Assembly (NCBI GenBank): GCA_046756825.1
Contig: JBHHXB010000001.1
Coordinates: 1-33,365 of the forward strand
Reading direction: 5' to 3'
DNA from: Nitrospiria bacterium
GTDB taxonomy: Bacteria > Nitrospirota > Nitrospiria > SBBL01 > JAADHI01
Length of the DNA: 33,365 nucleotides
Every line of letters begins with the position of its first letter. Position 1 is the stretch's first letter. Of the stretch, positions 1-25,829 are shown piece by piece. A model generated the notes under the pieces. It worked only from the letters and a program-made list of their open reading frames with translations, ran no database searches and was not told the DNA's origin. A program made the translations under genes and the position numbers.

Positions 1-356
1 TCCACTTCGGCTTCCTCCACCACGACCAGTTCGATGCAGTACAAACCATCCACATCGGCGATAAAGGTCGGTGTCGCCGTTTCCGGACCGCTGAGCTGTG
101 TCGCGCTGCCCTGTGGAGTGGCCAGAATGCGCCACCGAAAATTGATCTCATCGCCGTCCGGGTCGCGGCTATTCGAGCCGTCCAGAGACACCAATGCGCC
201 GTTTGCCACATTCTGATCCGGCCCGGCGTCGGCGACGGGTTTGTTGTTTGTCTGAACAAGTGCGGCCTGATCCGGTTCGTCATCCACACACCCCGCAAAA
301 AAAAGACTGCAAAGAACCAGAATCGAAAAGAAAAGCCGAAAACCCCGTGTCCGCAC
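1..356 (-). CDS. Lipoprotein with PKD-like domain (C-terminal part cut off by window edge)
   Basis: The minus-strand frame is open from 356 to the left edge; it is absent from the ORF track because no stop lies in the window. GTG at 356 gives VRTRGFRLFFSILVLCSLFFAGC, with n-region, h-region and lipobox FAGC. In-frame ATGs at 413 and 425 are alternative starts. Downstream, ADAGPDQNV..LDGSNSRDPDGDEINFRW is a PKD-type signature. Confidence 0.5.
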   Translation of the reverse strand, partial: MRTRGFRLFFSILVLCSLFFAGCVDDEPDQAALVQTNNKPVADAGPDQNVANGALVSLDGSNSRDPDGDEINFRWRILATPQGSATQLSGPETATPTFIADVDGLYCIELVVVEEAEV

Positions 357-429
357 ACATGTCTCAATATTTGGATATCGGGATTCGCTTCTTATTTTTT
401 TGATGTTTTTCATTTTCTGCACCATATTC

Positions 430-3216
430 CTAGGGTGTAAAACGGGAACGCGCGCGGCTGCGATCGGTCATTTTTTCAGCCAGTTCCCTTCGGTTAAATT
501 CATTAAAAGAAAAACCCGCCGCTCGAAAGGCCTCCACCTTCCAAGTCACTTCCTCTCCCACGGAGATGGCTTTGAGCAAGGGAGAAACCGCCTCGGGAAA
601 GGGCGGCAGGGTGATCTCTTCGAGCGCGCCGGGCACCCAGGCCTGCCACAGACGATCCCCGTTTTTAGCTTCCAGCCTCACGTGATAGAGATCCACCGGC
701 CCGGTTCCGGGCCGCCACGCAAAGACCGGCGTCTCGCCGACATTCGCCGCACCCGGCCCGGGGGACAGCAACACCGGCGGCGCGGGGAGGGAAACATCCA
801 GACTTGAAGGGATTTCGGACAAATTTTGGAGGATTGAAAAACTGCTCGTTTCGTCCGCCTTTTGCGCCAACACGCCCAGAAAAAAGCTTTCAAGCCCCTC
901 GGTCTGAATCGAGCGAATACGATATTGCGAGCCCGGCGACGCTTTCAAAATGTCCGTGTCGGTTCCGGTGAACACGCGGCCCTGCGGCACGACGGCCCCC
1001 ATTGAGGCCATTTTCAGATCGCTCACCTTAAACCCCGCAGGCAGGGAAATTGTGCCCGTCGTTTCAAAAAATACGGGACGCTGGTCGAAAAAAATATCGA
1101 AGGGCAGCCTCCCCCCCGGCCCCAGCGGCCCCAGGCCGGTCCCAAAAGTGAGGTTATAAGACGCCTCATTCGACGCGGCCGAGCCGGTGCGAAAAGCGGT
1201 AAAACCCAGCCGCCGTTTTGAGGCCGGGAAGGACATCCGATACTCCCCGCCGCCGCTTCCCTTCGACATGCGAATCAGGTAATCCCCCTCCGTCAACGCA
1301 GTGATGTTGACATTGCCCGAGGCATCCGTCACGCAGGAGCTGGTACATTCGAGCCCGCCTCCGATCAACAAAAGGTCGCTTCCAGTTAAAGCCGTGTCAT
1401 CGGCCCCTCTCACAGTGAGGGTCGATACGTTCGGAGGGGGCGGAGAAGGCACCTCGCGTTTGACCAATTCGACGAGCCGGACGCTGTTGGGATAGACGGG
1501 AAGCGTCCGCCGGTCTAAAAGCACTCCGGCGGCGTCACGGGCAGTCAAGGTGTACACACCAGCACTCTGCGCCAAGGGGAGATCCAGAACGACAAAACCA
1601 CCGGAGGCATCGGTCTGGCACGAATTCTCGCTGAATGCACATAAAATATTGCCTGAAACGTCAATGGCATAGGCTTTTCCGGCAAATGTTCCCGCTTGAT
1701 CCGTCACGGAAAGCACGGCGTTTGAGATGGGCTCGACCCCTGGATCCCCGTTGAGATCCAAAGCCCCTGTCTTTTTCGTCACCCGGCCCAATATCTCGCC
1801 GTGATTGGGCAGAAAACCCAAACGATTCGGAATATTACCTTCAGCATCCGCCCGGGCGGGGTCTGGAATCCGCGCCTGAATGACCATGTCGGTCAAGACA
1901 CTCAAGGGCACCGCGCTCAAGGGATAGTTCGATTTGGGCCGGTCGTGAAAAGAGACCTCCTGATAGGTCGCCCTGAAACCGCTGCCCGCAGCAATAAAAA
2001 CGACGTAGCGGCTGTTGGACGGACGACCCGAAACCTGATAGTGCCCCGCCGTGACCACGCCGCCATTGGCCGTGAAGGATTCTTCAAACGTGTCGCCGGA
2101 AAAATTGATCACGGCGCGCGGCACCCCGATATTCCCGCCGCTTAACGGGCCTTTTTCCTCTTCCTCCCGGTAGTCGGGCCGAAATGCCACCACCCTGCCG
2201 CTAAGGCTGAGCGTGCTTGAAATGGGGTCAACCGGCAGAGTAAAGACCACCGATCCTTCCGACGGAAGACGGAGAAATCTGAGCCCCACGCCGATGCCCC
2301 GGCTTTCCGAAAAAAGAATCACATCATTATTGGGCACCAATTTCAGAAAAAGAAACCGGCCGTCGTCCGTCGTCGCGGCCAGGGCCGGGTCGAGTTCGCC
2401 CGCCGCATTAAAATAATACGCGCGACCCGCGTCGGCCCCGTTAAAGTATTCCGCCCTCACCTGAACCCCGGACTGGGGGACATGGGCCGCATTGATCACC
2501 GTCCCCAAAACGGCCGTTTCCCCAAAGTTTTGGCGGACACCGGCTTTTTCCGCCCAGAGATCGAGATCCTTCGCATAAACAAAGGTGAGGTTCCGGGGTG
2601 ACGAGCCGTCGAAGTCGATCCGCTGATGCGTGAGGGAGCGGACGGGGCCGTTGAGTTGAAACCCGCCCATGGCATCAATGACCGCCAGAAATGCGGTTTC
2701 GTCTTTCCCGACATCAAACACCTTCCCCTCAATCGACCCGTCGGAGAGCACCTCATCCCTCGGCGCCAGGGGAACCGACACCCGCGAGGCGTTCACTTGA
2801 TAAAACGAGGTGTTTTGAAAGAGGACGGGAAAGGGCGCGTCGGCACAGCCGAAGCAGGCGTAGACGTGGATATCCTGAGGACCGAACACCTCTTCAAAGG
2901 TGGCGATGCCCTGGGAATTTGTGGTGGCGGACCTTGCGCCATCCCTCCCTAAAAAAACCTGGGCGTCGGGAATCGGAGATCGCAGCACCTCGTTAAAAAC
3001 CAGAACCTCCAATCGGCCTTGAATCGGCCCGCCCGCCGTCCCGCCATCCTTGGAGGCAAGCGCGGCCGTCACATTGTGTTGCCCGGTATCGCTGCAGGCC
3101 GCCAAGAACCCCAGCAAAATCATCAGCGGCGCCCACCGAAACCATCGGGTCACGACTGGACCGCGCCGCGCCGCCCCCGGCCTTCGAGATTTTTTAATGT
3201 GTTGCTTGTTCGTCAT
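430..3216 (-). CDS. Large lipoprotein (928 aa) with repeated carboxypeptidase-regulatory-like / Ig-like beta-sandwich domains
   Basis: Lies in ORF 430..3372. The start is moved to ATG 3216, 17 nt after the stop of the upstream gene (3233). This gives MTNKQHIKKSRRPG...LMILLGFLAAC with lipobox LAAC. The motif T(D/N)xxG-hydrophobic-x-hydrophobic recurs (TNSQGIATFEEV, TDDGRFLFLKL, TDASGGFVVLDL, TDASGNVNITAL) and is typical of CarboxypepD_reg-like folds. No catalytic motif was recognised. Confidence 0.7.
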   Translation of the reverse strand: MTNKQHIKKSRRPGAARRGPVVTRWFRWAPLMILLGFLAACSDTGQHNVTAALASKDGGTAGGPIQGRLEVLVFNEVLRSPIPDAQVFLGRDGARSATTNSQGIATFEEVFGPQDIHVYACFGCADAPFPVLFQNTSFYQVNASRVSVPLAPRDEVLSDGSIEGKVFDVGKDETAFLAVIDAMGGFQLNGPVRSLTHQRIDFDGSSPRNLTFVYAKDLDLWAEKAGVRQNFGETAVLGTVINAAHVPQSGVQVRAEYFNGADAGRAYYFNAAGELDPALAATTDDGRFLFLKLVPNNDVILFSESRGIGVGLRFLRLPSEGSVVFTLPVDPISSTLSLSGRVVAFRPDYREEEEKGPLSGGNIGVPRAVINFSGDTFEESFTANGGVVTAGHYQVSGRPSNSRYVVFIAAGSGFRATYQEVSFHDRPKSNYPLSAVPLSVLTDMVIQARIPDPARADAEGNIPNRLGFLPNHGEILGRVTKKTGALDLNGDPGVEPISNAVLSVTDQAGTFAGKAYAIDVSGNILCAFSENSCQTDASGGFVVLDLPLAQSAGVYTLTARDAAGVLLDRRTLPVYPNSVRLVELVKREVPSPPPPNVSTLTVRGADDTALTGSDLLLIGGGLECTSSCVTDASGNVNITALTEGDYLIRMSKGSGGGEYRMSFPASKRRLGFTAFRTGSAASNEASYNLTFGTGLGPLGPGGRLPFDIFFDQRPVFFETTGTISLPAGFKVSDLKMASMGAVVPQGRVFTGTDTDILKASPGSQYRIRSIQTEGLESFFLGVLAQKADETSSFSILQNLSEIPSSLDVSLPAPPVLLSPGPGAANVGETPVFAWRPGTGPVDLYHVRLEAKNGDRLWQAWVPGALEEITLPPFPEAVSPLLKAISVGEEVTWKVEAFRAAGFSFNEFNRRELAEKMTDRSRARSRFTP

Positions 3217-3232: not shown

Positions 3233-6200
3233 TCAGAAAACGAGCCGAAGCCCGACGGTCCCGACGATTTTTTCATACGACCCCTGGGCGCTCGTGGTCC
3301 CCGACACGAGGGCTTCCTCTGTGTCCGGCGGAATGCTGTCGAGATTGGATCGATGCCCCAACCACGAGCCATTCACCAAAATCTGAATCCCCCGCTCCAG
3401 CCCGATGGTCAGACCAAGACGCACGGACTGACTTTTCGTCTTTCGTTTTTTTGAAAATCCGGTCTCCTGATAAAGATAGTCGCGATAGGCGTACTCGTAG
3501 GCCAGGTTGAGTTGAACACCGCGCATCAAGGGTCTGTCATACTGAATCGACGGAGAGGTTGCCAAAAAGGTAAACTTTCTGCCCTTGCGTCTGGTATTAA
3601 CATTCGCGAAAGCCCGGGCGCCCAGGGTGAGACGCCCGCCCGCCCACTGGCTTCTAAAATAGGTCCCCGAAATCGTGGGCTGATAGGCATCCAGGTCACT
3701 GTTGTTGACGGAATCAAACAGTCTAACCCGGCCCTCGACGGCGAGACTTCCGCCTTCGTCCACATTCGAAAATGTACTGATCGTCACTTCATGTCCCTGA
3801 CTGGAAAGAGCGCCCTCAAACAGGCTGAGCTGGTATTCATATTCAAGGGTCCTTCTTGTTCGATACCCCCTCTTTTCATAATACAGGCGTGTCCCGGTCG
3901 AGAAGAAGGAGACCTGATCCTTGATAAAACTCGACAACTGCGGGGTCAGGCGCAGGCCGAGACGCCGACCGCCGCCGTAATCAAACACCCGCTGATATTG
4001 GCCGACGAGACTGGAAAGAATGTCGTTCGTCGGATCCTCGCTTAAGGTGATGTTGTTATCGACGGTCGTTTGATAGGCGATGGATCGGGTGACAAAGAGA
4101 CGGCTGACGCGCTCTTCGATTTCCTCCCGAAAAGCGGCGGGCAAATCTTTATCCTCCAAGGCAATGTTATAGTGCTTGAGCGCATTCTCAGATTGACCGA
4201 CTTCCTCGTAAAGACTGGCCAGACGCAGTCGTTTCGCCCGGTCTTTGGGCGCAAGCGCCACCGCCTGGTTAAAGTGCCTCAGCGCTTCCCCGGCATTCTT
4301 CCGGCGAAGCGCGATAAAACCTAAATTAAAATACCCCATGGGCTCCTCGGGATCGAGTACGAGCAAGGCCTCAAACTCGGCGCGCGCGGCAGACAGGTTG
4401 CCCTCCCGGCCCGACACAACCCCATTGAGGAGGTGAAAGCGGACCTGAGCAAAACGCCTTACCTTCCCGAAGGTGAGCGGGAGCAGTGCCGCGTAATCCT
4501 GAACGCCCGCCTCTTCCGCCCGGCCCACCTCGATCTGTTCCGCAATCACCTGGAGCATCATCTTGCTGTCTTCGGGGGCAAGCCGGGATAATCGTTGCAA
4601 CAGATGCCGTGCCAGACCCAATTTTTCCTCAAAACGAAACACCTGCCCCCCCGCAGCCAGCCCCGGCAGCGCCGATAAAAAATCGGACTCGGTCCGGACT
4701 TCGCGAATGAGAGCGAGCACCTTGGAAATTTGAATCTCCGAGAGAATCAGATAGGCGTTTTTATCCTTTGGATCCAGTGTCATCACCTTTTCAAAGGCCA
4801 CGACCGCCGCGTCAAAATCCTTGATCTGCTGATAAAACACACCCAGATTAAAAAAGTTCGCGGGGTTGTCCGGCTGCACTTCAATGGCGGTCTGAAACCA
4901 TTTGAGCGCCGATTCAAATTGCCGGGTGCGCATGGCGATTTTCCCCCGGACAGAGAAGGTGCTGACCCGCGCGCTTTCTCCCTCGGCATTTTTAGAGTTC
5001 ACTCCGGCTGCTTTTTCATAAAAAGCCACGGCTTTTTCAAGGGCTTCCCGCTGCTCATAGAGACTGCCGAGATGAATATAGGCCCTCTGGTGACGCGGGT
5101 TTTCCTGAACCGTTTTCAGAAACAAGGCCTCCGCTTTCCGGGTATCGCCCAGTTGAAGATGAATCCTTCCCATGTTGAAATAAAGCGCCGCCTGTGCACG
5201 AGAAGTTTTCAAGGCTCCCTCAAAAACGCTCAAGGCTTCCTTCAAACGTCCCTGTTGCGCCAACAGACTTCCTCTTAGCAGGGGAATTTTTTGATTCGCG
5301 CTCACGCCCCCGGGATTCTCCGCATTGATGTCCACGGCACGGGTAAAGGCCGCAAGGGCTTCCGCAAGCCGTCCCTGACTCTCATACAAGTTCCCAAGAT
5401 TCAGATAGGTTTCCTGGTGTCCGGCATCGGCGGACAGAACTTTTAAAAAGGCCTGCTCCGCCTCTTTCGGCCGCTTTTGAATCATATAAATCCGGCCGAT
5501 GTGATAGTGAAGCTCGGCCTGCTCTCCCGAGAAAGACAGCGCATTCAAAAAGACCGACAGGGCTTCCTCAAAACGCCCGTGGCGGGCAAGCAGCCTCCCC
5601 TGTAATACGGGCATCTTGCTTTTGGCGATTTGCGCGCCCGGCCCTTCCGTATTGATCGCCAGCACTTTTTCAAAACGCGCGAGGGCCTGTTCAATATCCC
5701 CCTGACGCGCGTAAAGATCCCCCAGTCTGACGTGGGCGTCCTGATGATCGGGGTTGATGGCAACGACCTGTTGAAAGGCTTTTTCGGCGGCGGGGTCATC
5801 CTTTTTTTGAAGATAGATCAGACCGATATTGTAGTGCACGCCCGGATCGTCCGGGGTGATTTTTTCGGCTGCCTTGAACAGTCCCAGGGCCTGATCAAAA
5901 TTTCGTGAACGGGCCTGTAAAATCCCCTGAATCATTTTGATTTTAAATCGGCTGACGCTCATCATCTCCCCTGGCGGCCCCAGTTTGAGCACGGCTTCAT
6001 AAACCTCGAGCGCCTCGGATAATTTTTGACGTGCCTCCAATAAACCGGCCAGCCGAAGACGGGCTTCAATGCCGCCCGGATCAAGGCGGATGGCCTCTCT
6101 TAGCGCGGCTTCGGCCGGATCGAGACGCCCCAGCCTTAAGTAACTGATCCCCAGACGAAGCTGAATCTCTGCTTCGTCTGGAAATGTTTTGGACAGGGAC

Positions 6201-6403
6201 TCAAAAAAATCGACGGCATCCTGCCATTTTCCGGCCCGCATAAATTGTCTACCCTCGTCCATTCCTTTTTGAAGCGACGGCTTCGACACCGTCTCCGCCC
6301 AGGCCATGCCGGAAAAGATCAACACAATGGCCACGGCCTGTTTTATGTGCCGCTTCAAGCTCGGATTCAAAAGAAAAATCGGATCCCCGCCGTGAGTTCC
6401 CAT
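3233..6403 (-). CDS. TPR-repeat protein fused to a C-terminal outer-membrane beta-barrel (BcsC/PgaA/PelB/Slam-like architecture)
   Basis: 1056-aa ORF. Signal peptide ..KQAVAIVLIFSGMAWA/ETV. About 700 aa of degenerate 34-residue TPR units follow (repeated A..A...F..AL.L.P....A...LG..Y). The last ~320 aa show alternating-hydrophobic strands and end ..VGLRLVF, the terminal aromatic beta-signal. ATG 6403 overlaps the upstream gene by 37 nt. TTG at 6358 (MKRHIKQAV...) would remove the overlap. Confidence 0.8.
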   Translation of the reverse strand: MGTHGGDPIFLLNPSLKRHIKQAVAIVLIFSGMAWAETVSKPSLQKGMDEGRQFMRAGKWQDAVDFFESLSKTFPDEAEIQLRLGISYLRLGRLDPAEAALREAIRLDPGGIEARLRLAGLLEARQKLSEALEVYEAVLKLGPPGEMMSVSRFKIKMIQGILQARSRNFDQALGLFKAAEKITPDDPGVHYNIGLIYLQKKDDPAAEKAFQQVVAINPDHQDAHVRLGDLYARQGDIEQALARFEKVLAINTEGPGAQIAKSKMPVLQGRLLARHGRFEEALSVFLNALSFSGEQAELHYHIGRIYMIQKRPKEAEQAFLKVLSADAGHQETYLNLGNLYESQGRLAEALAAFTRAVDINAENPGGVSANQKIPLLRGSLLAQQGRLKEALSVFEGALKTSRAQAALYFNMGRIHLQLGDTRKAEALFLKTVQENPRHQRAYIHLGSLYEQREALEKAVAFYEKAAGVNSKNAEGESARVSTFSVRGKIAMRTRQFESALKWFQTAIEVQPDNPANFFNLGVFYQQIKDFDAAVVAFEKVMTLDPKDKNAYLILSEIQISKVLALIREVRTESDFLSALPGLAAGGQVFRFEEKLGLARHLLQRLSRLAPEDSKMMLQVIAEQIEVGRAEEAGVQDYAALLPLTFGKVRRFAQVRFHLLNGVVSGREGNLSAARAEFEALLVLDPEEPMGYFNLGFIALRRKNAGEALRHFNQAVALAPKDRAKRLRLASLYEEVGQSENALKHYNIALEDKDLPAAFREEIEERVSRLFVTRSIAYQTTVDNNITLSEDPTNDILSSLVGQYQRVFDYGGGRRLGLRLTPQLSSFIKDQVSFFSTGTRLYYEKRGYRTRRTLEYEYQLSLFEGALSSQGHEVTISTFSNVDEGGSLAVEGRVRLFDSVNNSDLDAYQPTISGTYFRSQWAGGRLTLGARAFANVNTRRKGRKFTFLATSPSIQYDRPLMRGVQLNLAYEYAYRDYLYQETGFSKKRKTKSQSVRLGLTIGLERGIQILVNGSWLGHRSNLDSIPPDTEEALVSGTTSAQGSYEKIVGTVGLRLVF

Positions 6404-7197
6404 CCGCTTAAGTCAATCTCCAATATCCGCCGCACATTGTCCGGGCCGACATACTGCACGGGGTCGCCCGGCTGTGGAATGGCGCGCGCGACGCCCACGG
6501 CGTCATCCACGGCGTCGCGCTCTAAAAAGGTGTGCCGAAACGATTTGTAAAATAACTGCCTTGTTTTGCCCGTCCTGTAAAGCGCATCCACGCCCACAGC
6601 GAACCACTTCGTTAAATAATAATCCCCGCCGACGCCCCACTCCAACATATAGCCCCCCTCGCTTTCCGCGCGAGAGAGAATGTTCCTCAGAAACTCCTGA
6701 TTCCCTGTATCAAACACATAATTAAAGTCTTCCCGGTAATTCACCTTGATGAGGCTGAACAGACCGATGTCAAGATAAAGGCGGTGTTTTTTGGGAGCAT
6801 CCAGAACATGATAGCGCCCGTGCAAGGCGTATTCATTGAAAGAAACACGAGTCGTTCTTTTCGCCGTGAAGGGCACGATGCCGAAATCCTGAAATTGAAT
6901 CTCGCTCTCCTCGATCGCGGTGGACTCGCCTTCCCAGAACGAGGTTTTCAACATCAGGGAAAAGCGCGGACGGATACGCCACTCGATACCGATGCCGTGT
7001 ACAGGACCGCCTTCCACACCGGGACTGCCCCCCACGCGCGGCGGAATAAAAGTCGTCTGCTGCAGCTGGCCCGTATTCAATAAATTGAGCTTGGCCTGGC
7101 TGTAGCCCGTGGAAATCTGGACATTCCATTCAGCTAAAACATCGGCAGGCCACAGGAACAACCCTAAAAAAATAAACGCGAAAAACAATCCCTTCAT
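6367..7197 (-). CDS. Outer-membrane beta-barrel protein, family unknown
   Basis: 276 aa. Signal peptide MKGLFFAFIFLGLFLWPADVLA/EW. Alternating beta-strand pattern, with C-terminus ..LTAGIRFFF. Confidence 0.7.
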   Translation of the reverse strand: MKGLFFAFIFLGLFLWPADVLAEWNVQISTGYSQAKLNLLNTGQLQQTTFIPPRVGGSPGVEGGPVHGIGIEWRIRPRFSLMLKTSFWEGESTAIEESEIQFQDFGIVPFTAKRTTRVSFNEYALHGRYHVLDAPKKHRLYLDIGLFSLIKVNYREDFNYVFDTGNQEFLRNILSRAESEGGYMLEWGVGGDYYLTKWFAVGVDALYRTGKTRQLFYKSFRHTFLERDAVDDAVGVARAIPQPGDPVQYVGPDNVRRILEIDLSGWELTAGIRFFF

Positions 7198-7440: not shown

Positions 7441-8907
7441 CTAAAAGCTATACTTTATTTCAAAAAAAACACGGTCACGATTCACAAAGGTCCCCACAAA
7501 TTGAAACAAACGATCATTCGCCGGTGCCGCGAGATCGGGGAGCAGTGTCTCCCGGTGACCAAAGAAAAAATCCCCGCCCACGGCCAATTGAATACTATCC
7601 GTCATCCTGTACGTCGCCTTTGGCTTGAACAAAACCTCCTCATTGTTAATCAAATAGAGTAAAAAGGCTTGACCCGTGAGCGAGCCTGAGAGAAAGCCGC
7701 GCCGCGCAAACACGCTGATAAAGGTGTCGTACTGGTCTTGAAAGAAAACCGGCTGGTGATTAAAAATAATCCACTGCGAGACGGCCAGGGAAATATCTGT
7801 ACCCAAGAGAATGCTGTCCGCTTCGACGCCCCAGCGCACGTGATCCCGTTTGAGCGCGCCGTTATGATCAAGCCGGTTATCGCCGTCCAAATCGGCTAAA
7901 CGGGTCCCGAAATACTTTCCGGCGATATAAGAGGCCTCGCCCTTTAAAATGACGCGCTTTAAATTCAACATCATCGCCGCGCCGAAAATATGCATCCGAT
8001 GAAATTCCGGATCAAAGACCGGGCCGCAATCCGGGTCGGTCACCGGCTGATCAAATTGCAAGGTGACGGGAAGACATTTCGCCGGCGGGGTGACAAAACG
8101 AAATCCCGTAAATTCGCGAAAAGGTGTCGGAAAATCATCCCAGGTATAAAAATAGCTCAAAGCCAAATCCACCCCCGGCCATGACCGGGAAACACGCAGA
8201 CCGGCTTCTGAATTTCTGAATGTTTGCGGCGGGGACTTCTGACCGGGCAGACGTTGAAACAACTCCCATTCAGAGCCCGGCGGTGCGGGTTTGTGCGGCG
8301 TAATTTCAGGGATCCAGAGCGCCTCAATTTGATACGCCCCCGCGTAATAGTTGGCCTTCGCCATCCATAACGGAATCCGAAAATCAATCAGATCGGGGAG
8401 AATGAATTCTCTGAAATCAAGCGGGTTGATTTCATCCAGTATGCGAAAGCCCAGAAGTTGCTCCCAAACCACGATCTGTCTGCCGATTCGAAGATCAAGG
8501 TTTTGAAACGAGCCGTCAAAATAGACCTCGCGATATTCGGCAAATTCCCGGTTATCTTCTTCTGCGCGTTGAGAGACAAAGGCCAACGGCAGATTGGGGT
8601 CATTGGGCGGATTCACTGTATCGTAATCCGCAAAAAGATACACGGCATCAAGCCAGCCCCATCCCGAGGCAAAAAAATACAGGTTGGGCAGAAGATCCGC
8701 CTGGCTTTCTAAAAAGAGGATGTTTCTGATTTTTGTAAAAGTGGCCGGTTCTCGAATCCTGAAGGCCGTCTCGTTTTTAAGATACCCTCCCAAGCGCACA
8801 CGCGGGAAGTCTGAGTCTTCCGCGGCATAAGGGATTGCGGTTGGGGATAAACATAACGACACCCCGATCAACCACAAAAAAAAACGGGAAAGGACGTTCA
8901 GGAACAC
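7441..8907 (-). CDS. Outer-membrane beta-barrel protein, DUF1302 / alginate-export-like
   Basis: Lies in ORF 7441..9051. The first 48 codons from ATG 9051 would run through a strong hairpin terminator and encode an Arg/His/Pro/Phe-rich non-signal sequence. GTG 8907 gives MFLNVLSRFFLWLIGVSLCLSPTAIPYA/AE, a signal peptide. RLGGYLKNETAFR and IGRQIVVWEQLLGFRILDEINPLD resemble the DUF1302 / Alginate_exp signature (lG+Q.v.WG......D.iNP.D). C-terminus ..FFEIKYSF. Confidence 0.6.
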   Translation of the reverse strand: MFLNVLSRFFLWLIGVSLCLSPTAIPYAAEDSDFPRVRLGGYLKNETAFRIREPATFTKIRNILFLESQADLLPNLYFFASGWGWLDAVYLFADYDTVNPPNDPNLPLAFVSQRAEEDNREFAEYREVYFDGSFQNLDLRIGRQIVVWEQLLGFRILDEINPLDFREFILPDLIDFRIPLWMAKANYYAGAYQIEALWIPEITPHKPAPPGSEWELFQRLPGQKSPPQTFRNSEAGLRVSRSWPGVDLALSYFYTWDDFPTPFREFTGFRFVTPPAKCLPVTLQFDQPVTDPDCGPVFDPEFHRMHIFGAAMMLNLKRVILKGEASYIAGKYFGTRLADLDGDNRLDHNGALKRDHVRWGVEADSILLGTDISLAVSQWIIFNHQPVFFQDQYDTFISVFARRGFLSGSLTGQAFLLYLINNEEVLFKPKATYRMTDSIQLAVGGDFFFGHRETLLPDLAAPANDRLFQFVGTFVNRDRVFFEIKYSF

Positions 8908-8980
8908 ACGGACCTTTTGAATCCTGTGGAGCCTGATTTTTAACGAAAAAAGCGAAAAGTGGCGATCAGGGGCGTGAGGA

Positions 8981-9041
8981 AAAAAGAAGGGCCTATGGTG
9001 CGGGATGAAACGGTATCCTCGCTGCCATAGGCCCCTTTTTT
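8981..9041. terminator. Long hairpin with T-runs on both strands, directly after the second secreted-paralogue gene
   Basis: GGGCCTATGG (8989-8998) pairs perfectly with CCATAGGCCC (9025-9034). An inner GCGAGGAT/ATCC-CGC helix extends the stem. On the minus strand it is followed by TTCTTTTTT, on the plus strand by CTTTTTT. It begins 29 nt after the stop at 9063. Confidence 0.6.
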
Positions 9042-9062
9042 GACACAGCATTCAGAAATAAA

Positions 9063-9740
9063 CTAGAAGCTCTGATCCACCGTCGCGGGCAAACCCGTAT
9101 CAAACACGATGCTTGAGCTGAATCCCGGGGTTGTTGGATCTGTCACAAGCTGATCGATATGAGTGTTGAATCCGCCCGTACCGTCGGGAGTCAGGGTCAA
9201 GTCATTCCGAGTCAAACCCTGACCGGGATCTGTAATGCTTTGGGTGATATTGATATTGGTACCGACCATATCTTCCTGCCCCGGGCCGGTCCCCTTGTTA
9301 ATGATATTCAGATTATCCATCCGGACCAATATGTCCACCGACGGAACAGGCGGGGTGGTCGCCGTACCGCCGTCCGTGGCTGCTTTCAGGCTTTGCTTAA
9401 AGGTGATGTTGTTCGTGGACGTCGTTGTCGTCGCGCCTGTCACGGCACCACCCGGGGTAAAAGTCTCCTGAATAAATTCAGAACCCGTGGAGCCGTCCGG
9501 TTTGCTGCGGATAATCATGTGATTCAAAAGCTGCCCGCCAATCGTCACCTGCTCCTGAAAGAAGACATTATCTCCAATGGCTTCAAACAAACGATTCGTT
9601 CCGCCCGCCAAACCGCAGGCCGCCTGACTGGCGCAGGTCCCGTCGTTAAAGCTGGTTGTCGTCTGCGCTTCCACCATGCCCGCCGAAAACAGGATTCCCA
9701 AGGTCATCAACCCCAGGATTGTATTTTTTAATTTCATCAT
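9063..9740 (-). CDS. Secreted Thr/Gly/Gln-rich protein, unknown family (paralogue B)
   Basis: Lies in ORF 9063..9758. ATG 9740 is preceded by AAGGAGGT. Signal peptide MMKLKNTILGLMTLGILFSAGMVEA/QTT. Shares the blocks FFQEQVTIGG, FIQETF, ITFKQSL and VDIL with the upstream gene. Ends ..VDQSF. Confidence 0.75.
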   Translation of the reverse strand: MMKLKNTILGLMTLGILFSAGMVEAQTTTSFNDGTCASQAACGLAGGTNRLFEAIGDNVFFQEQVTIGGQLLNHMIIRSKPDGSTGSEFIQETFTPGGAVTGATTTTSTNNITFKQSLKAATDGGTATTPPVPSVDILVRMDNLNIINKGTGPGQEDMVGTNINITQSITDPGQGLTRNDLTLTPDGTGGFNTHIDQLVTDPTTPGFSSSIVFDTGLPATVDQSF

Positions 9741-9782
9741 TCCTACCTCCTTAGTCAATGCATTTTCCCTTAAAGTATTCGT

Positions 9783-10520
9783 CTATCTAACTTGAACGAT
9801 GGTCGGCGATCCACCTGTCGTAAAGTCCATGTTCTGGCTAAAGACAGTGGCTCCCAGCGCATCGGTCACCTTCACTTCCTGGGAAATGGTGGTACAAAAT
9901 GGCGACGTAGTCCCGCAAGAGGGGTCTGTTGCCTCCTGCCCCTTCACCACAAAATTAGGGAGAATGTCAACATTCGTGAAGCTCAAGCCTCCGGCCTGTC
10001 CCGCGACAGCGGCCCCTCCGTCCACCTGCTGGTGGATATGAATATCCTGTCCGGGGTCAAGACTGGAGGTCGTCGAAAAACCCGGCCCTGTCAAGGACTG
10101 CCGAAAGGCGATGCTGGTCTGACTCGGCGGCGGCGTCACGGGCGAAGTGGTATTGTTTTGCGTTGTTGGACTTCTTTGGCTTCCCATCAAAACAAAACTT
10201 TCCTGAATAAACGAAGTCCCGATCTGAGAGGCTTCCAAAACGGAGTGAATTGCAAGTTGAGGCGGCGCGGCGGCCCCGCCAATCGTCACATTCACAAATT
10301 CCTGCACAAAGAAACTCCCGCTGCCCATTACGCCCTCTGTCGTCACCAACTGCCCGGAAAGGGGAACGCCGCTTCCGCCGACACCCGAGTGAACAAAGGG
10401 AAACGGCGAGGGGTTATCAGTGAAGGTTGGGGCACCGACTTGCGCTTCGGCCTGTCCAACACCCGAAGTGATCAGCATGCCGATGACTAATAGGAGCAAC
10501 CCTCCTTTTCTTAAAATCAT
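9783..10520 (-). CDS. Secreted Thr/Gly/Ser/Pro-rich protein, unknown family (paralogue A)
   Basis: Lies in ORF 9783..10595. ATG 10520 is preceded by TAAGGAGGAATGGT. Signal peptide MILRKGGLLLLVIGMLITSGVGQAEA/QV. Carries the blocks FFVQEFVNVTIGG, FIQESF, IAFRQSL and VDIL. Confidence 0.75.
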   Translation of the reverse strand: MILRKGGLLLLVIGMLITSGVGQAEAQVGAPTFTDNPSPFPFVHSGVGGSGVPLSGQLVTTEGVMGSGSFFVQEFVNVTIGGAAAPPQLAIHSVLEASQIGTSFIQESFVLMGSQRSPTTQNNTTSPVTPPPSQTSIAFRQSLTGPGFSTTSSLDPGQDIHIHQQVDGGAAVAGQAGGLSFTNVDILPNFVVKGQEATDPSCGTTSPFCTTISQEVKVTDALGATVFSQNMDFTTGGSPTIVQVR

Positions 10521-10657
10521 ACCATTCCTCCTTACATTAAATAACCAGAAAACCTGCTGGGTTCTGTTAAAAATATATTTAATACAAAAATCCATTCAGT
10601 AAACGGCGAATCTCGCACCCCCTGGCATCATTCAACCCATAAGGGCAATGTAGGGGC

Positions 10658-10686
10658 CTTATAAACGAAAACATAACTTCTGTCAA
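10658..10686 (-). promoter_or_regulatory. Sigma70-type promoter for the secreted-paralogue genes
   Basis: Minus strand reads TTGACA (10686-10681), a 17-nt spacer, then TATAAG (10663-10658). The predicted 5' UTR is ~130 nt to ATG 10520. Confidence 0.5.
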
Positions 10687-10829
10687 GCCGGAAGTCCTAA
10701 CAATCGCTTCGATTGATGCTTCCAATCACTCAAGAGACAACGAGGCTCACGCTTAAAACGAGGAGGTTTATCCTTTCCATTTCTGTTTTTGGGGAAAAAT
10801 CACCCGCTTATAGTCTTTTCATGAATCGT

Positions 10830-11768
10830 CTAGCTTTTTGGTCGTTCGTCAAACAGGCCGGAGAGAAAGGCTTCGGGCGTAAAGGGGATGAGGTCTTCGG
10901 TGCCTTCTCCGACACCGACATACAGAACGGGAACTGAAAGGGATTCGACGATGGGAATCACGATGCCGCCTTTGCCGCTGCCGTCCAGTTTGGTGAGGAT
11001 GATACCTGTCAGTCCCACAGCCTTTTGGAAATGCTCGGCCTGGGAGAGCGCGTTTTGGCCCGTCGTGGCGTCCAGCACGAGGATTTTTTGGTGCGGGGCC
11101 TCCGGAATCTGCTTTGAAATAACGCGGGTCATTTTCTTCAATTCTTCCATCAGGTTGTGCTTGGTTTGCAAACGGCCCGCCGTGTCGATCAAAACGTGGT
11201 CCGCCCGGCGCGCCAGGCCCGCGCTGACGGCGTCATAGGCGACCGCGGAAGGGTCGGCTTCCCCATGATGGCGAATCACGTCCACCCCGACGCGCTCCCC
11301 CCAGATGGCCAGTTGATTGGCCGCACCCGCCCGAAAGGTGTCCGCCGCCGCCAATAACACCTTCTTTCCTTCGGATGTGAGCTGTGATGCGATTTTCCCG
11401 ATCGAGGTGGTTTTGCCGACCCCATTCACCCCGACAAAAAGGGTGACAGTCGGAATAACAGGAGAGGCGGCGAGGCCCTGCCCCGTCGCAACCTTGGCCA
11501 GGATTGCTGAAAGCGACGCGCGAAGTTTTTCTTTCAACGCGGACACGTCCGTCACTTCTTTTCGATCCACGGATGCCTTTAGATCGTCAATTAAATCCTG
11601 GGTCACCGCCACGCCAAGATCCGCGCCAATCAGAAATGCCTCCAGGGCATCAAGCATACCGTCGTCGATCTGTGTTTTTCGGTGGAAAATTCCATCGAAC
11701 CCCGAGGCAAAATAGGCCCGTGTTTTCGAGAGCGCAGCCCCTGTTTTTTTGAAAAATCCACTACTCAT
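10830..11768 (-). CDS. ftsY: Signal recognition particle receptor FtsY
   Basis: 312 aa. NG domain with GVNGVGKTTSIGK (P-loop), DTAGR and TKLDG motifs. The start overlaps the ybeY stop (ATGA). Confidence 0.95.
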   Translation of the reverse strand: MSSGFFKKTGAALSKTRAYFASGFDGIFHRKTQIDDGMLDALEAFLIGADLGVAVTQDLIDDLKASVDRKEVTDVSALKEKLRASLSAILAKVATGQGLAASPVIPTVTLFVGVNGVGKTTSIGKIASQLTSEGKKVLLAAADTFRAGAANQLAIWGERVGVDVIRHHGEADPSAVAYDAVSAGLARRADHVLIDTAGRLQTKHNLMEELKKMTRVISKQIPEAPHQKILVLDATTGQNALSQAEHFQKAVGLTGIILTKLDGSGKGGIVIPIVESLSVPVLYVGVGEGTEDLIPFTPEAFLSGLFDERPKS

Positions 11769-13251: not shown

Positions 13252-14301
13252 CTACGATGATGACGGATGATTCGCGGTTTCCAGGGGCGGCTCGCCACCT
13301 GTTTCAGTATAAAGGATCGTCTGCTTCGTGCCCGTCACCCAGCCGACGTTCTGATCGGAGAAGTGAACACCCGTCAAAAACTGCAGGGTTCCCGTGGTCT
13401 GCTGTACCCAGGTTTCTCCACCGTCCTTGGTTTGCAATACCGTTCCGCCCGCGCCAACCACCCAGCCATGATTTTCATCCACAAAGGAAACATCGAGCAA
13501 GAGGGAATTGAGTTCGCTTTTTTGAGCCGCCCAGGTTTTTCCACCGTCCGTCGTTTTTAAAATCAAGCCCGCGCTCCCGACAATCCACCCGATATCCCGG
13601 TTCACGAAAAAAATACGCAGCAGGTCGATTGTCGTGCCCGTTTGCCGGATCGACCAGTTTTTCCCACCGTTTTCAGTATAAAGCAGGTTTCCTTTATGCG
13701 CGGTAATCCAGCCGTGATCGGGGTCGGTAAACAGGGCATAATTCATGGTCAGCCGCGATTCGCCCTTCGCCTTCAACCAGGTCCGGCCACCGTCATCGGT
13801 TGAAAGCAGGTTGCCCTTGATGCCGGTCACCCAGCCCCGCTTTTCATCAATAAAAAAAACCGAGGTCAGATCTTTTTTCACCCCGCTGGGCTGCGGATTC
13901 CAGGTATGGCCCCCGTCCGCCGTATGCGCAATCAAGCCCCGGTCCCCAACCACCCAGCCGAGCCGCTCGTTCAGAAAAAAAATCGACACAATCGGGACCT
14001 TTGTTCCGATTTCCTGCTGTACCCACTCCTTGCCGCCGTTTTCCGTGTGGAGAATCACTCCTTTGTCACCCGTTACCCAGCCCTTTTTGTCATTCAGAAA
14101 AAACAGGCCGCCGAGAGAAGTATCCACGGGAACCGTCTGGACATCCCAACCCGTTGAAATTTCAGAGCGGTCAGGCATCTCGGGGGCCCTTGGGCATCCC
14201 AGGATCAGCAGGCTCAAAAAAATTAAAAGTGGCGCACGCAGGCCAACCCCTCTGTGATTTGATATTTTCACTGTTCTCCCGCAATCCACATTCAGCCTCA
14301 T
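13252..14301 (-). CDS. BNR/Asp-box beta-propeller lipoprotein, Ycf48-like
   Basis: 349 aa with lipobox LLILGC. Repeated Asp-box-like units: TENGGKEW, TADGGHTW, TDDGGRTW, TENGGKNW, TTDGGKTW, TKDGGETW, each followed by G-W-hydrophobic-hydrophobic-G. ATGA overlap with the upstream gene. Confidence 0.75.
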   Translation of the reverse strand: MRLNVDCGRTVKISNHRGVGLRAPLLIFLSLLILGCPRAPEMPDRSEISTGWDVQTVPVDTSLGGLFFLNDKKGWVTGDKGVILHTENGGKEWVQQEIGTKVPIVSIFFLNERLGWVVGDRGLIAHTADGGHTWNPQPSGVKKDLTSVFFIDEKRGWVTGIKGNLLSTDDGGRTWLKAKGESRLTMNYALFTDPDHGWITAHKGNLLYTENGGKNWSIRQTGTTIDLLRIFFVNRDIGWIVGSAGLILKTTDGGKTWAAQKSELNSLLLDVSFVDENHGWVVGAGGTVLQTKDGGETWVQQTTGTLQFLTGVHFSDQNVGWVTGTKQTILYTETGGEPPLETANHPSSS

Positions 14302-15281
14302 TTGACTTTCAAAAGCATCCAGTCTTCTTCCTGGTTTTCATTTTTAAAAAGCCCCTTCATTGTGCCGGCGAACAGGGTCTTTTTTTTCAGGGGATGGGAG
14401 ACCACCGTCAATACGGAGGAGGGCGATTTTGAAAGCAGACGCCACGAATCTCCGCCGTCCGTGCTCTGATAAACACCGTCGCTGTTCCCCGCATAAACGA
14501 TATTTGAATCTTCCCGGTCCACGGCAATGGATGAAATAAAGGTAGTCTTAAAACCTTCGTTTCGCGCTTCCCAGTGGCCGCCCCCATCGACTGATTTAAA
14601 CACGCCTTTTCCCGTGCCTGCGTACACTGTATCGGGATGAACAGGGTCAAACTGGACGGTGTTGACCGCCCAGCCCTTGGTTTCCCGCGAGGCCATCCGC
14701 CATTGCCTCGCGGAGTTACTGGTCATATAAACACCGTCATTGGTCCCCGCCATAATGATCTCCCGGTTACGGGGATGGAAGGTCAGCGAAATGACAAAGC
14801 GGTTGCCCATGCCCATGTTCACATCGGTCCATGAACTCCCGCCGTCGATCGTCAGATAAACACCGTGATTTGTCCCGGCGTACACACGCTTTGACTCGAC
14901 GGGGTCCACGATCACCGCGTTCACCGCCTGCGTCCCCACATTGTCATCCAGCCCATGGCTGACCACATTCCAATGCCCCCCGCTGTCAATACTCCGGTAG
15001 ACGCTGTCGCCGTACGTCCCGGCATAAATCACGGAAGACAGGGAGGGATTCACCGCGATCGAGGCAATATTATAGCTCGTCAAGCCCTTATTCATTTCGC
15101 TGAACGTCGCGCCCCCGTCCTCACTTTTATAAAACCCTCCGCCCGAAGTCCCGACGTAAACGATTTCGGATTTGTGATAGCTAAACCCGATCGAAAAAAC
15201 ATTCGCCCGCCGTTCGCAACCCGTGAAGACGAAAAAAATAAGGACAGGGATGATTTTAAACCGAGGGTAAAATCGCGTCAT
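14298..15281 (-). CDS. BNR/Asp-box beta-propeller lipoprotein
   Basis: Lies in ORF 14298..15335. ATG 15281 gives MTRFYPRFKIIPVLIFFVFTGC (lipobox); ATG 15308 and 15335 are alternative starts. Asp-box units: SEDGGATF, SIDSGGHW, TIDGGSSW, SVDGGGHW, STDGGDSW. Confidence 0.7.
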   Translation of the reverse strand: MTRFYPRFKIIPVLIFFVFTGCERRANVFSIGFSYHKSEIVYVGTSGGGFYKSEDGGATFSEMNKGLTSYNIASIAVNPSLSSVIYAGTYGDSVYRSIDSGGHWNVVSHGLDDNVGTQAVNAVIVDPVESKRVYAGTNHGVYLTIDGGSSWTDVNMGMGNRFVISLTFHPRNREIIMAGTNDGVYMTSNSARQWRMASRETKGWAVNTVQFDPVHPDTVYAGTGKGVFKSVDGGGHWEARNEGFKTTFISSIAVDREDSNIVYAGNSDGVYQSTDGGDSWRLLSKSPSSVLTVVSHPLKKKTLFAGTMKGLFKNENQEEDWMLLKVK

Positions 15282-15427
15282 TTCAGCCCTAAAAAATATC
15301 GTGGGCATCGTACCATATCTTTTTCGCAGAGACAATCAAACCGCAGCCCCTCCCGCTCATTCGAGCCGCCTGATGACCTTTTGCGCCGCGGAATATCACG
15401 GCCTGACAAACCGCCTCGTGATCCTCC

Positions 15428-23368: not shown

Positions 23369-23433
23369 TATATTTATTCTCCCTTTCAAATCACATTCCA
23401 GTCAAATGGACTCGTAAAACGTTCCAAAAGAGA

Positions 23434-24435
23434 TCATCCCCATGTTCTTGGAAAGAATCCTGTATGCCAGTATTCAAAGATGATCACTTTCCAGATTTCG
23501 TTTGTCGTCAGATGCTTTTCCCAGGGCGGCATGGCCGAGGCCCAGGGGAAGGCTTCACGCGACAAATCCGGTCCACCTTTTGACACACGCCAGAACACAA
23601 AGGTCTCCTGTAACTGAGAGATGGTCCCAGGGTCGGCAAAGTTTGCTGGAATGGGGTTAAAGGCAAATGAAAAGGGGCCTTTTCCGTCGAGGTTGTCCCC
23701 ATGGCAGAAGAAGCAACCGGCGGTTCCAAAGAACACAACGCCCCCTTGCTGGACTTGTTGAAGAAACTTGGGCACATCACCTGTCCAGGCATTTCCACCA
23801 AAATATTGGGCTTCATCACCCACCTTCAGGTAGTTCCCGTCATCCCCAATCCGAAATGGATTTTCCGCAGTTTGAAGGTTCAATGTTTTTTTATGAACAT
23901 TGATACTTGCCGGCGGCGCCGGATGCACCGTCCTCAACTCGATCGGCTCTCCGAATTTCGGGAGCATCTGGTTGTAGGTTTGAAAGGCGATCAACCCCGG
24001 CACAATCAGGAAGGTCGCGTAACGCGAAATTTTCGCCGTTCCATGATCTTCCCGCAACATCACCGCAATGGGATGGGAAAATTCCTCCCACGAGGGTCTT
24101 GTAATGGAGCAATAAAGAAAGATCGCCACCGTACAGACTCCCATGTACATCGCCAGCAAGGTGAAAGGAATCGGCGGCCGCAAGATAACACGAAAACCGA
24201 CATAACAAATAATCCACAGCAGGGGCGCCTGGATGAGTTTCGGCAAGGGAATCCCCATTTTGTCCTTAATCAGCCATGCGGACAGAATTGCGAAGGTCAC
24301 AAGACCCACCTCGATCGCGACAAAGGTTCCGGCGTCGAAAGGACCGCCACCACCACCGGCCCAGGCAAACATCGGGACAGCCAGGATCAGTGCCAAGACC
24401 TGCGCAAACAAAGTCTTTGGTTTAAACTTACTCAT
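23434..24435 (-). CDS. Polytopic membrane protein with C-terminal monohaem cytochrome c domain
   Basis: 333 aa, AGGAGG upstream. The N-terminal ~170 aa hold about 4-5 hydrophobic helices. The C-terminal part has CFFCHGDNLDGKG ... SAMPPWEKHLTTNEIWKVIIFEYW, a class-I cytochrome c. Confidence 0.8.
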   Translation of the reverse strand: MSKFKPKTLFAQVLALILAVPMFAWAGGGGGPFDAGTFVAIEVGLVTFAILSAWLIKDKMGIPLPKLIQAPLLWIICYVGFRVILRPPIPFTLLAMYMGVCTVAIFLYCSITRPSWEEFSHPIAVMLREDHGTAKISRYATFLIVPGLIAFQTYNQMLPKFGEPIELRTVHPAPPASINVHKKTLNLQTAENPFRIGDDGNYLKVGDEAQYFGGNAWTGDVPKFLQQVQQGGVVFFGTAGCFFCHGDNLDGKGPFSFAFNPIPANFADPGTISQLQETFVFWRVSKGGPDLSREAFPWASAMPPWEKHLTTNEIWKVIIFEYWHTGFFPRTWG

Positions 24436-24466
24436 AATTACTTTGCCTCCTTTTTCATACGACTGC

Positions 24467-25747: not shown

Positions 25748-25777
25748 ACCTTCTCCTCTGTTCCTTTCTTTGCTACG

Positions 25778-25815
25778 TTGGCCCAAGGGGAGCGGGATTG
25801 CCCCCCCCTGGCCAA
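25778..25815 (-). promoter_or_regulatory. GC-rich stem-loop in the CydA-like / cytochrome c intergenic spacer
   Basis: TTGGCC (25778-83) pairs with GGCCAA (25810-15). Inner G-runs (25787-96) pair with the C8 run (25801-08). No U-tract follows. Confidence 0.3.
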
Positions 25816-25829
25816 TCAAACTCCCGTCA

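Follow-up and report, generated by a model that had tools for sequence, protein, structure and literature searches.

The window analysed here is a stretch of 33,365 nucleotides from a Nitrospiria bacterium (assembly GCA_046756825.1, contig JBHHXB010000001.1, positions 1 to 33,365). Between positions 9,063 and 10,520 its minus strand carries two adjacent genes for secreted proteins, here called A and B. On the evidence of their sequence profiles, the two products are true, diverged paralogues of a lineage-restricted protein family, and this family is new, having no family, structural or literature match. A and B stand next to the promoter in an operon and are set off by an RNA hairpin from its remainder, which encodes outer-membrane machinery; the operon as a whole is best described as a variant of a poorly understood outer-membrane module centred on a beta-barrel of the DUF1302 family. 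The explanation favoured in this study, which is put forward tentatively, is that A and B are abundant exported surface cargo of this outer-membrane apparatus.

Two secreted paralogues without a recognised family

The two genes and the main features of their products are as follows.

9783..10520, minus strand: gene A (ATG at 10520, stop at 9783), encoding a 245-amino-acid precursor with FTDNPSPFP(F/Y)VH near the mature N-terminus, FFxQEF, H92, FxQESF, AFRQS, C202-x6-C209 and the C-terminus ...IVQVR
9063..9740, minus strand: gene B (ATG at 9740, stop at 9063), encoding a 225-amino-acid precursor with C36-x5-C42, FFQEQ, H74, FIQETF, TFKQS, D142 and the C-terminus ...VDQSF

The start codon of A is preceded, at a distance of 7 nucleotides, by the Shine-Dalgarno sequence GGAGG, and AAGGAGG lies upstream of the ATG of B. 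Both precursors begin with a Sec-type signal peptide (residues 1-26 of A, ending ...GQAEA|QV, and residues 1-25 of B, ending ...GMVEA|QT), and both peptides lack a lipobox as well as a twin-arginine motif. Both families keep the A|Q junction without exception, so that the mature proteins would begin with Gln. The start sites and the conserved cleavage junction agree with a preliminary description of the region, made from the sequence alone, which had assigned Sec signal peptides and strong Shine-Dalgarno sites to both genes.

Homologue clusters number 29 for A, at 51-81% identity, and 32 for B, the two families together spanning about 50-82%. The ratio of non-synonymous to synonymous substitution rates (dN/dS) against the nearest relatives is 0.04-0.08 (0.036 for A against locus L004), with synonymous sites saturated, and these low values indicate strong purifying selection on both genes. 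Homologue conservation and dN/dS also support the minus-strand frames, and the plus-strand open reading frames at 9159-9731 and 9792-10490 are treated as spurious antisense frames. In nearly all homologues protein A ends in ...IVQGP; the ending ...IVQVR, encoded at 9783-9800, is a local change in the window, so that the terminus ...VQVR given in the preliminary description is correct for this stretch but atypical of the family.

An exhaustive HMMER scan of the joint A/B profile against 1.84 billion cluster representatives yielded 11 proteins, every one of A or B type. Their traceable sources are Manganitrophaceae-type Nitrospirota assemblies or unclassified metagenomes and no others, and genomes with members of the family bear the titles Nitrospirota, Nitrospiria, Manganitrophaceae or Manganitrophus. 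A and B have no match in Pfam or NCBIfam; Pfam likewise returned none for 38 family members at E up to 1 or for 27 A-type members at E up to 10, and searches of PDB sequences and PDB profiles gave nothing significant. The same result was obtained for Z, a third secreted protein of related loci described below, and the few hits in these searches were at chance level (Metchnikowin, CD276, tau). Together with the structural comparison by Foldseek, these searches confirm the earlier statement that the proteins belong to no recognisable family. The A orthologue of Candidatus Manganitrophus noduliformans (A0A7X6DPB4) bears the UniProt name 'CHRD domain-containing protein', which appears to be an automatic annotation; the CHRD model (PF07452) was not recovered in the 27 A-type members at E up to 10, and CHRD identity was rejected for the A family. 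The motif ...IHIHQ... of the beta-rich protein A loosely recalls the HIH motif of CHRD.

Compared directly, A and B are weakly similar (BLASTP E 5e-4). The profiles of the two families can be aligned from one end to the other (hhalign probability 98.6%, E 6.8e-16), and after removal of the signal peptides the alignment extends over 150 columns with a probability of 97.4% and an E value of 1.2e-11, which bears out the paralogy proposed earlier. Among the sequence blocks listed at that time as shared, FFxQE, FxQExF and (I/L)xF(K/R)Q are homologous and near-invariant, but VDIL is coincidental: in the profile alignment VDILVRMD of B stands opposite FSTTSSLD of A, and NVDILPN of A opposite NDLTLTPD of B.

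Residues common to both families (B numbering) are F60, Q62, E63, H74, F89, Q91, E92, F94, F114, Q116 and D142, followed by P185, F191, T193, Q197, F207, F213, T215, G216 and Q223. With the most distant members included, the invariant positions (A numbering) are F71, E74, H92, E107, D155, G178, F208, Q214, F227 and G236; the polar residues among them are Glu, His, Glu and Asp together with one Gln, and no others. Judged by this conservation, the Glu-His-Glu-Asp set is a candidate divalent-metal site, a point of evident interest in a Mn oxidiser. Exactly two Cys residues are present in 27 of 27 A-type and 30 of 30 B-type homologues, as C-x6-C close to the C-terminus of A and as C-x5-C close to the N-terminus of B, so that the single Cys pair at opposite ends of the two proteins, first noticed in the window, is a property of all 57 homologues. 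At its mature N-terminus, A carries the segment FTDNPSPFP(F/Y)VH, for which disorder is predicted in spite of its high conservation and which could be a recognition or interaction peptide.

The composition of both proteins is strongly biased. Mature A consists of 11.9% Gly, 11.9% Thr, 11.4% Ser, 8.2% Gln and 8.2% Pro, and mature B of 17% Thr and 12.5% Gly, values that substantiate the Thr, Gly, Gln, Ser and Pro richness described before; Thr, Gly, Ser, Gln and Asn together account for about 47-48% of A and B of the window. The 57 homologues are acidic, with about 16 Asp plus Glu and about 6-8 Lys plus Arg residues, and contain no Trp and 0-2 Tyr. This is a bias typical of extracellular fibre and surface proteins.

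Structure prediction with AlphaFold2 gave an all-beta model for A that is unreliable, with a predicted local distance difference test (pLDDT) value of 47 from a shallow alignment of 27 close homologues. For B, 55 sequences of both families gave a pLDDT of 69.3 and a predicted template modelling score of 0.54, residues 41-90 reaching about 88. The model of B has ten beta strands of 8-10 residues each and almost no helix, arranged as an antiparallel meander with two-residue turns, in line with the beta-rich fold anticipated in the preliminary description. Foldseek comparison of this model with PDB and BFVD gave no match at E <= 0.001. The best matches, with template modelling (TM) scores <= 0.25 and E >= 0.34, are not significant; they include RseB and VioE of the LolA fold (E >= 0.37 and TM <= 0.17 for a model of pLDDT 69), Bet v 1/START, a fatty-acid-binding-protein-like protein and levivirus coats; antiparallel meander sheets occur in the LolA-fold, Bet v 1/START and coat proteins alike. 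No internal repeats were found in mature A or B, since self-profile comparison by hhalign gave no off-diagonal match.

In most strands, as predicted from the AlphaFold2 boundaries and conservation, one face is polar and often rich in Thr, Asn and Ser, and the other is hydrophobic. A conserved polar residue lies centrally in the hydrophobic faces (E63, H74, E92, Q116, Q167, Q197, S/Q209 and Q223 in B numbering). The two-residue turn at positions 68-69 of the model would set E63 opposite H74, and, judged from hairpin geometry alone, residues such as E63, H74 and E92 would be neighbours across strands.

Organisation of the operon and its conservation

The remaining elements of the operon in the window, in the direction of transcription, are listed below.

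10658..10686, minus strand: promoter-like TTGACA-17 nt-TATAAG, 138 nucleotides before the start codon of A
8980..9041, minus strand: GC-rich hairpin with a U-run behind it, immediately 3' of the stop codon of B
7441..8907, minus strand: DUF1302 outer-membrane beta-barrel of about 488 amino acids (Pfam PF06980, E 6.8e-18), C-terminus ...FFEIKYSF
6367..7197, minus strand: small outer-membrane beta-barrel of 276 amino acids with a signal peptide (weak OMP_b-brl match, E 0.0017), C-terminus ...GIRFFF
3233..6403, minus strand: TPR protein of 1056 amino acids with a signal peptide and about 700 amino acids of TPR (TPR families, E down to 4.5e-80)
430..3126, minus strand: large lipoprotein of about 898 amino acids with the lipobox LLGFLAAC (PF13620, CarboxypepD_reg-type Ig-like, E 1.1e-9)
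1..425, minus strand: 5' part of a second large lipoprotein with the lipobox LFFAGC, the gene extending beyond the window

Wherever the flanking sequence reaches far enough, Ca. Manganitrophus noduliformans, five further genomes at species level and metagenome contigs share one order, namely A, B, DUF1302 barrel, small outer-membrane protein, TPR protein and lipoprotein, and this order recurs at the locus of the distant B-type protein P0063. The linkage of A and B homologues to outer-membrane genes, suspected in the preliminary description, is thus found in every locus with flank. In the window and in relatives of marine type, ftsY, ybeY, phoH and two BNR genes lie upstream, and in the freshwater genus a gene for a Big_5 protein; since these neighbours differ, the conserved unit begins with the secreted proteins. 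Two close relatives of the window have the isolate prefix OFTM and probably come from the Oslofjord subsea-tunnel study, in which Manganitrophus-like metagenome-assembled genomes were described from Mn-rich biofilms (PMC11442690), although these names are absent from the main text of that paper.

Directly upstream of A, every other locus, including that of the distant protein P0066, encodes Z, a third secreted, Gly-rich protein, whereas the window lacks it. The N-terminal part of Z aligns with the FxQE/FxQ region of A and B over 64 columns with moderate significance (hhalign probability 75.8%, E 2.3e-5), and seven of the eight Z sequences have an A|Q-type cleavage junction. Z contains both Trp and Tyr. 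In the gene numbering of Mn1, for which RNA levels are listed in Table S6 of PMC9040806, the anchors RlmN (Ga0306812_1011827) and a PP-loop gene (1011822) put Z, A and B at about 1011829-1011831.

The promoter-like site is the sole match in the window, and none of 100 shuffles gave one. It sits in the spacer between ftsY and A, which can be aligned with the ftsY-Z spacer of locus L004, and this position suggests that Z, A and B form one transcription unit in the relatives. Neither a search of the whole window against Rfam nor a permissive one of 8850-10900 revealed a riboswitch, for Mn or otherwise, and no Rfam element was found in the leader of A.

The 107-nucleotide region holding the hairpin folds at -35.7 kcal/mol (z -3.5 against shuffles). 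A strong hairpin is present directly 3' of B in 10 of 10 loci, its sequence being different in each, and the retention of a hairpin by unrelated sequences points to selection for the structure itself; a U-run comes after it in the window as well as in the three marine loci closest to it (L004, L005, L008). These findings indicate a terminator, an attenuator or an mRNA-stabilising structure between B and the barrel genes. Such a hairpin would decouple the mRNA levels of A and B from those of the membrane genes, and A and B may be expressed highly relative to the barrel genes. The spacer between B and the DUF1302 gene measures about 650 nucleotides in the freshwater genus, where it contains a called open reading frame of 109 amino acids (L001:11466-12120, L007, L009), as against about 155 nucleotides in the window.

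The DUF1302 gene scores 65.4 bits in Pfam against a gathering cut-off of 23.2, and its barrel is 62-81% identical across all A/B loci. Its start is probably the GTG at 8907, an uncertain assignment; the longest open reading frame, reaching to 9051, overlaps the hairpin. The small barrel recurs in all A/B loci whose downstream flank is long enough, as well as in several of the distant barrel loci. The TPR protein is kept in all loci, its C-terminal part being present in the distant loci as well, and its C-terminal domain of about 280 amino acids ends in the canonical beta-signal ...GLRLVF. A C-terminal barrel, giving an architecture like that of BcsC, PgaA or Slam, is probable, and NCBIfam shows partial TPR similarity to PgaA and BcsC, below the cut-offs. 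A C-terminal domain of DUF560/Slam or BcsC type was rejected, since the C-terminal 297 amino acids (3233-4126), like those of the M. noduliformans orthologue, had no Pfam match at E up to 10; the TPR repeats may thus be joined to a barrel domain of a kind not described before.

The first large lipoprotein probably starts at M83 of a 980-amino-acid open reading frame reaching 3372. It is found in the Manganitrophaceae-type loci, and no such gene follows the TPR gene in L018, the sole distant locus with enough flank. Orthologues of the second lipoprotein in L001 and L010 carry PKD, Kelch and Laminin_G domains. No genes for glycosyltransferases, synthases or polymer-modifying enzymes were found in the operon or elsewhere in the window.

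The wider DUF1302 module and the role of A and B

A metagenome scan with the DUF1302 alignment places the operon in a broader context. For barrels with at least 62% identity, A and/or B were found upstream wherever the upstream flank reaches. Around barrels with 40-44% identity the small outer-membrane protein and the TPR-barrel protein are kept, and upstream of the barrel is a LolA_like (PF17131)/DUF1329-related gene for a protein of 258-288 amino acids. One locus (L020:146-1889) has two tandem LolA_like paralogues of 288 and 278 amino acids upstream of the genes for DUF1302, MMPL, outer-membrane and TPR proteins, which parallels the A/B pair. Most of these distant loci carry a small CopG-like gene, lying between the LolA_like gene and the barrel gene where present, and three distant loci (L020-L022) encode an MMPL/RND pump; the Manganitrophaceae-type operon has neither an MMPL pump nor a CopG-like gene. 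A and B thus hold the position of the periplasmic carrier in an older trafficking module, and in its Manganitrophaceae version the pump was lost and Z, A, B and the two giant lipoproteins were gained.

Some properties of this module are known from the literature. DUF1302 has been modelled as an 18-strand barrel resembling AlgE (PMC13499233). Its pairing with DUF1329 and a predicted complex of the two have been reported, and cofitness in Pseudomonas ties DUF1302 to DUF1329, BNR and RND genes (PMC13499233; bioRxiv 10.1101/2020.07.04.188060). Proposals for the function of the DUF1302/DUF1329 module include export of an envelope component or esterase activity (bioRxiv 10.1101/2020.07.04.188060). 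In the window, two tandem BNR/Ycf48-like genes (PSII_BNR, Sortilin-Vps10; 13252-15335, minus strand) lie four genes upstream of A; they are shared with the marine-type relatives only and may be incidental. Two distant DUF1302 loci have upstream genes for Cys/His-rich proteins with (M)KNPCHGSNPC repeats (L017:169-1509 and L019:4100-5193, both minus strand); one of these is secreted and the other has membrane segments, and both look metal-binding. In L018 a secreted protein of 321 amino acids, rich in Thr, Gly, Ser, Gln and Asn and containing C-x5-C, GDGFIQVQ and YVDQSF, was considered as B-like and rejected, its hidden Markov model (HMM) scores being no better than those of 2000 shuffles.

In the export reading favoured here, A and B would enter the periplasm via Sec, and their disulfides would form there. 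The co-encoded barrels would then carry them across the outer membrane, or dock them onto it, with the TPR domain serving as a periplasmic receptor or scaffold. A and B would end as an abundant surface or extracellular component, maybe as an A-B hetero-oligomer, joined by Z in the relatives, and as a surface layer or soluble pool they would face an environment of Mn(II) carbonate and Mn(III/IV) oxide. This reading is based on a composition of extracellular type, the promoter-proximal unit that the hairpin bounds, the set of several paralogues and the pairing of TPR and barrel; Sec peptides without a lipobox, a near-consensus promoter and strong Shine-Dalgarno sites are consistent with it. The joining of a TPR domain and a barrel is known from exporters of polymers and of proteins. 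We infer passage of A and B through the barrels, a surface location and a mineral or metal role. Several observations weigh against export. The LolA_like carriers upstream of the barrel in the distant modules, once in tandem, favour the role of a periplasmic partner, and a folded beta protein of about 21 kDa would need unfolding to cross the outer membrane, while the operon encodes neither an energy source nor a chaperone for such export. Repeats and a fold of fibre type are absent from A and B, and the AlphaFold2 model of B is only moderately confident and has no structural neighbours. Moreover, the Trp and Tyr residues of Z weaken the idea that oxidisable residues were lost as an adaptation to Mn oxide.

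The alternative with the next strongest claim, possible though rather doubtful, is that A and B are periplasmic carriers, adaptors or plugs on the DUF1302 barrel, which have replaced the LolA_like/DUF1329 proteins, being either non-homologous to them or diverged beyond recognition, and which shuttle a hydrophobic or metal ligand. Apart from the genomic position next to related barrels, the tandem pair of L020 and the association of the module with an MMPL/RND pump, it draws on the published pairing and predicted complex of DUF1302 with DUF1329. The mature proteins, of about 200-220 amino acids, are near in size to LolA-type carriers and, by the model of B, are ten-strand antiparallel meanders; the LolA fold (RseB, VioE) and lipid-binding folds recur among the best Foldseek matches, and the polar stripe within the hydrophobic face could line a ligand cavity. 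These structural matches are, however, not significant, and the sequence comparisons are negative: the A/B profiles (A5, A1) gave hhalign probabilities below 1% against four LolA_like neighbours of related barrels, and neither the 38 family members at E up to 1 nor the 27 A-type members at E up to 10 matched PF17131 or PF07044, so that LolA_like identity was rejected at the sequence level. The composition is also the opposite of that of the LolA_like carriers of related loci, which have 7 Trp, 12 Tyr and 38 Lys plus Arg residues. Periplasmic carriers rarely have Thr/Pro-rich segments or so little Lys and Arg, and the Manganitrophaceae operon contains no MMPL pump to feed one.

A sub-case of the export model, and an unlikely one, would make A and B the two components, nucleator and major subunit, of a fibre of functional-amyloid or beta-solenoid type, which the barrels would secrete unfolded. 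Paired paralogues behind one promoter, with Sec peptides and a composition rich in Gly, Gln, Thr, Ser and Asn and poor in Lys and Arg, would suit such a fibre, as would the Gln residues central to most strands, which could form a ladder, the dedicated outer-membrane barrels downstream and the hairpin that splits the subunit genes from the machinery genes. FapC has a C-terminal CxxC, which the conserved Cys pair of A and B recalls. The third, distantly related secreted gene of the relatives extends the analogy with nucleator and major subunits, but in the distant modules the A/B slot is filled by LolA_like periplasmic carriers. Moreover, the proteins lack internal repeats, the AlphaFold2 model shows antiparallel hairpins with two-residue turns instead of stacked rungs, Foldseek returned no beta-helix or amyloid match, and Pfam and NCBIfam revealed neither Curlin or Fap domains in A and B nor homologues of CsgG, CsgE, CsgF, FapF or FapD. 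The solenoid or amyloid fold suggested in the preliminary description is therefore not supported.

Its further suggestion of a small membrane barrel is likewise unsupported, and it is very improbable that A and B are integral beta-barrels of the outer membrane, each on its own or together as subunits of one hetero-oligomer. The ten predicted strands, each 8-10 residues long and joined by loops that are short and long in turn, would fit, as would the terminal Phe of B and the barrels encoded by the neighbouring genes. However, the aromatic girdle is missing (0 Trp and 0-2 Tyr, compared with averages of 11 Trp and 22 Tyr in the neighbouring DUF1302 barrels), conserved Glu, His or Gln residues occupy the centres of the hydrophobic faces, and Foldseek found no significant outer-membrane barrel match. 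As to the beta-signal proposed for B, the terminal ...Q(S/N)F is indeed conserved, but ...VDQSF is polar at -2 and -3 and lacks hydrophobic residues at -2 and -4 and thus the canonical alternating pattern seen in the three neighbouring barrels; A ends in ...QGP or ...QVR. The evidence of the strands, of the C-termini and of the missing girdle favours soluble beta proteins with a polar stripe in a core or cavity, not embedded in lipid.

Within the export reading a more specific and speculative proposal may be formulated, which is improbable in its full extent. Z, A and B would be the cargo of an unrecognised export route, made of the DUF1302 barrel, the small barrel and the TPR-barrel protein, that arose from a LolA_like/MMPL module of lipid type when its periplasmic and inner-membrane components were exchanged. 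The exported proteins would form an acidic, Thr-rich surface layer or soluble shuttle, poor in oxidisable residues, that binds Mn via the Glu-His-Glu-Asp set and either delivers Mn(II) to an extracellular oxidation machinery or templates or deflects Mn(III/IV) oxide against encrustation.

Relation to known systems and significance for manganese lithotrophy

The operon is closest to the modules of LolA_like/DUF1329, DUF1302 and MMPL/RND proteins, including the DUF1302-DUF1329-BNR-RND set of Pseudomonas, with which it shares an orthologous core of the DUF1302 barrel, the small outer-membrane protein and the TPR protein with a C-terminal beta domain. Both encode one or two secreted proteins of about 200-290 amino acids upstream of the barrel, and the window also has the two nearby BNR/Ycf48-like genes. 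Unlike those modules, the A/B operon has secreted proteins without detectable homology to the carriers and of opposite composition, lacks the MMPL and CopG-like genes, and has gained two giant lipoproteins, along with Z in the relatives.

Curli (CsgB/CsgA with CsgG/E/F) and Fap (FapB/FapC with FapF) resemble it in having paired small Sec-dependent paralogues with their own outer-membrane proteins, the subunit genes being transcriptionally apart. However, A and B do not contain the imperfect repeats of 19-23 amino acids of curli (Ser-x5-Gln-x-Gly-x-Gly-Asn type), and no Curlin match was found by Pfam in the 38 family members. In place of CsgG or FapF homologues, the machinery here comprises the DUF1302 barrel, the small outer-membrane protein and the TPR-barrel protein, and the predicted fold is an antiparallel meander. 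The resemblance to Slam/type XI secretion, in which a TPR protein with a DUF560 barrel exports beta-barrel cargo encoded next to it (TbpB or hemophilin, for example), is architectural only: there too a periplasmic TPR domain is joined to a C-terminal beta domain and cargo-like genes for Sec-dependent soluble beta proteins adjoin, and the large lipoproteins of the operon could be surface-displayed. In contrast to that system, the operon has no DUF560 domain and A and B no TbpBBD-type domain, the TPR region measures about 700 instead of about 150 amino acids, and there are two further barrels. A long TPR protein beside a DUF1302 barrel modelled as AlgE-like (PMC13499233) also recalls the exopolysaccharide export systems AlgK/AlgE, BcsC, PgaA and PelB, which combine TPR with a barrel of 16-18 strands, except that genes for polysaccharide synthesis are missing and the other products of the operon are proteins.

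Elsewhere in the window, genes at 21590-27764 (minus strand) and 29593-31479 (plus strand) encode two cytochrome bd-like subunits I (644 and 628 amino acids), a fusion of a di-haem cytochrome c with EB_dh (haem b) of 599 amino acids and a further cytochrome c. These genes resemble the non-canonical 'TO' terminal-oxidase clusters of Ca. Manganitrophaceae. A type II/IV secretion ATPase (T2SSE, MshEN) with a C-terminal double zinc-ribbon is encoded at 15428-17383 (plus strand), divergently from the BNR genes.

To our knowledge, no bacteria in culture other than members of Ca. Manganitrophaceae have been shown to live by Mn(II) oxidation. At the cell surface these members must cope with a substrate that is insoluble, MnCO3, and with a product, Mn oxide, that is both insoluble and strongly oxidising. 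Three complexes restricted to the lineage, PCC_1, TO_2 and Complex_I_3, were picked out by comparative genomics (PMC9040806); the A/B operon is mentioned neither in the main text of the paper nor in its available supplementary files. The A/B family has a similarly narrow distribution, is strongly conserved and is apparently set for high expression, which makes the operon a candidate lineage-restricted surface system of manganese lithotrophy. If the speculative route for Mn-binding cargo outlined above were true, the operon would be a fourth lineage-defining trait of manganese chemolithoautotrophs beside these three complexes. The replacement of LolA_like and MMPL proteins by unrelated ones is, moreover, a natural experiment that may reveal what is transported by the barrels of DUF1302, an unsolved family of interest in Pseudomonas and ESKAPE pathogens.

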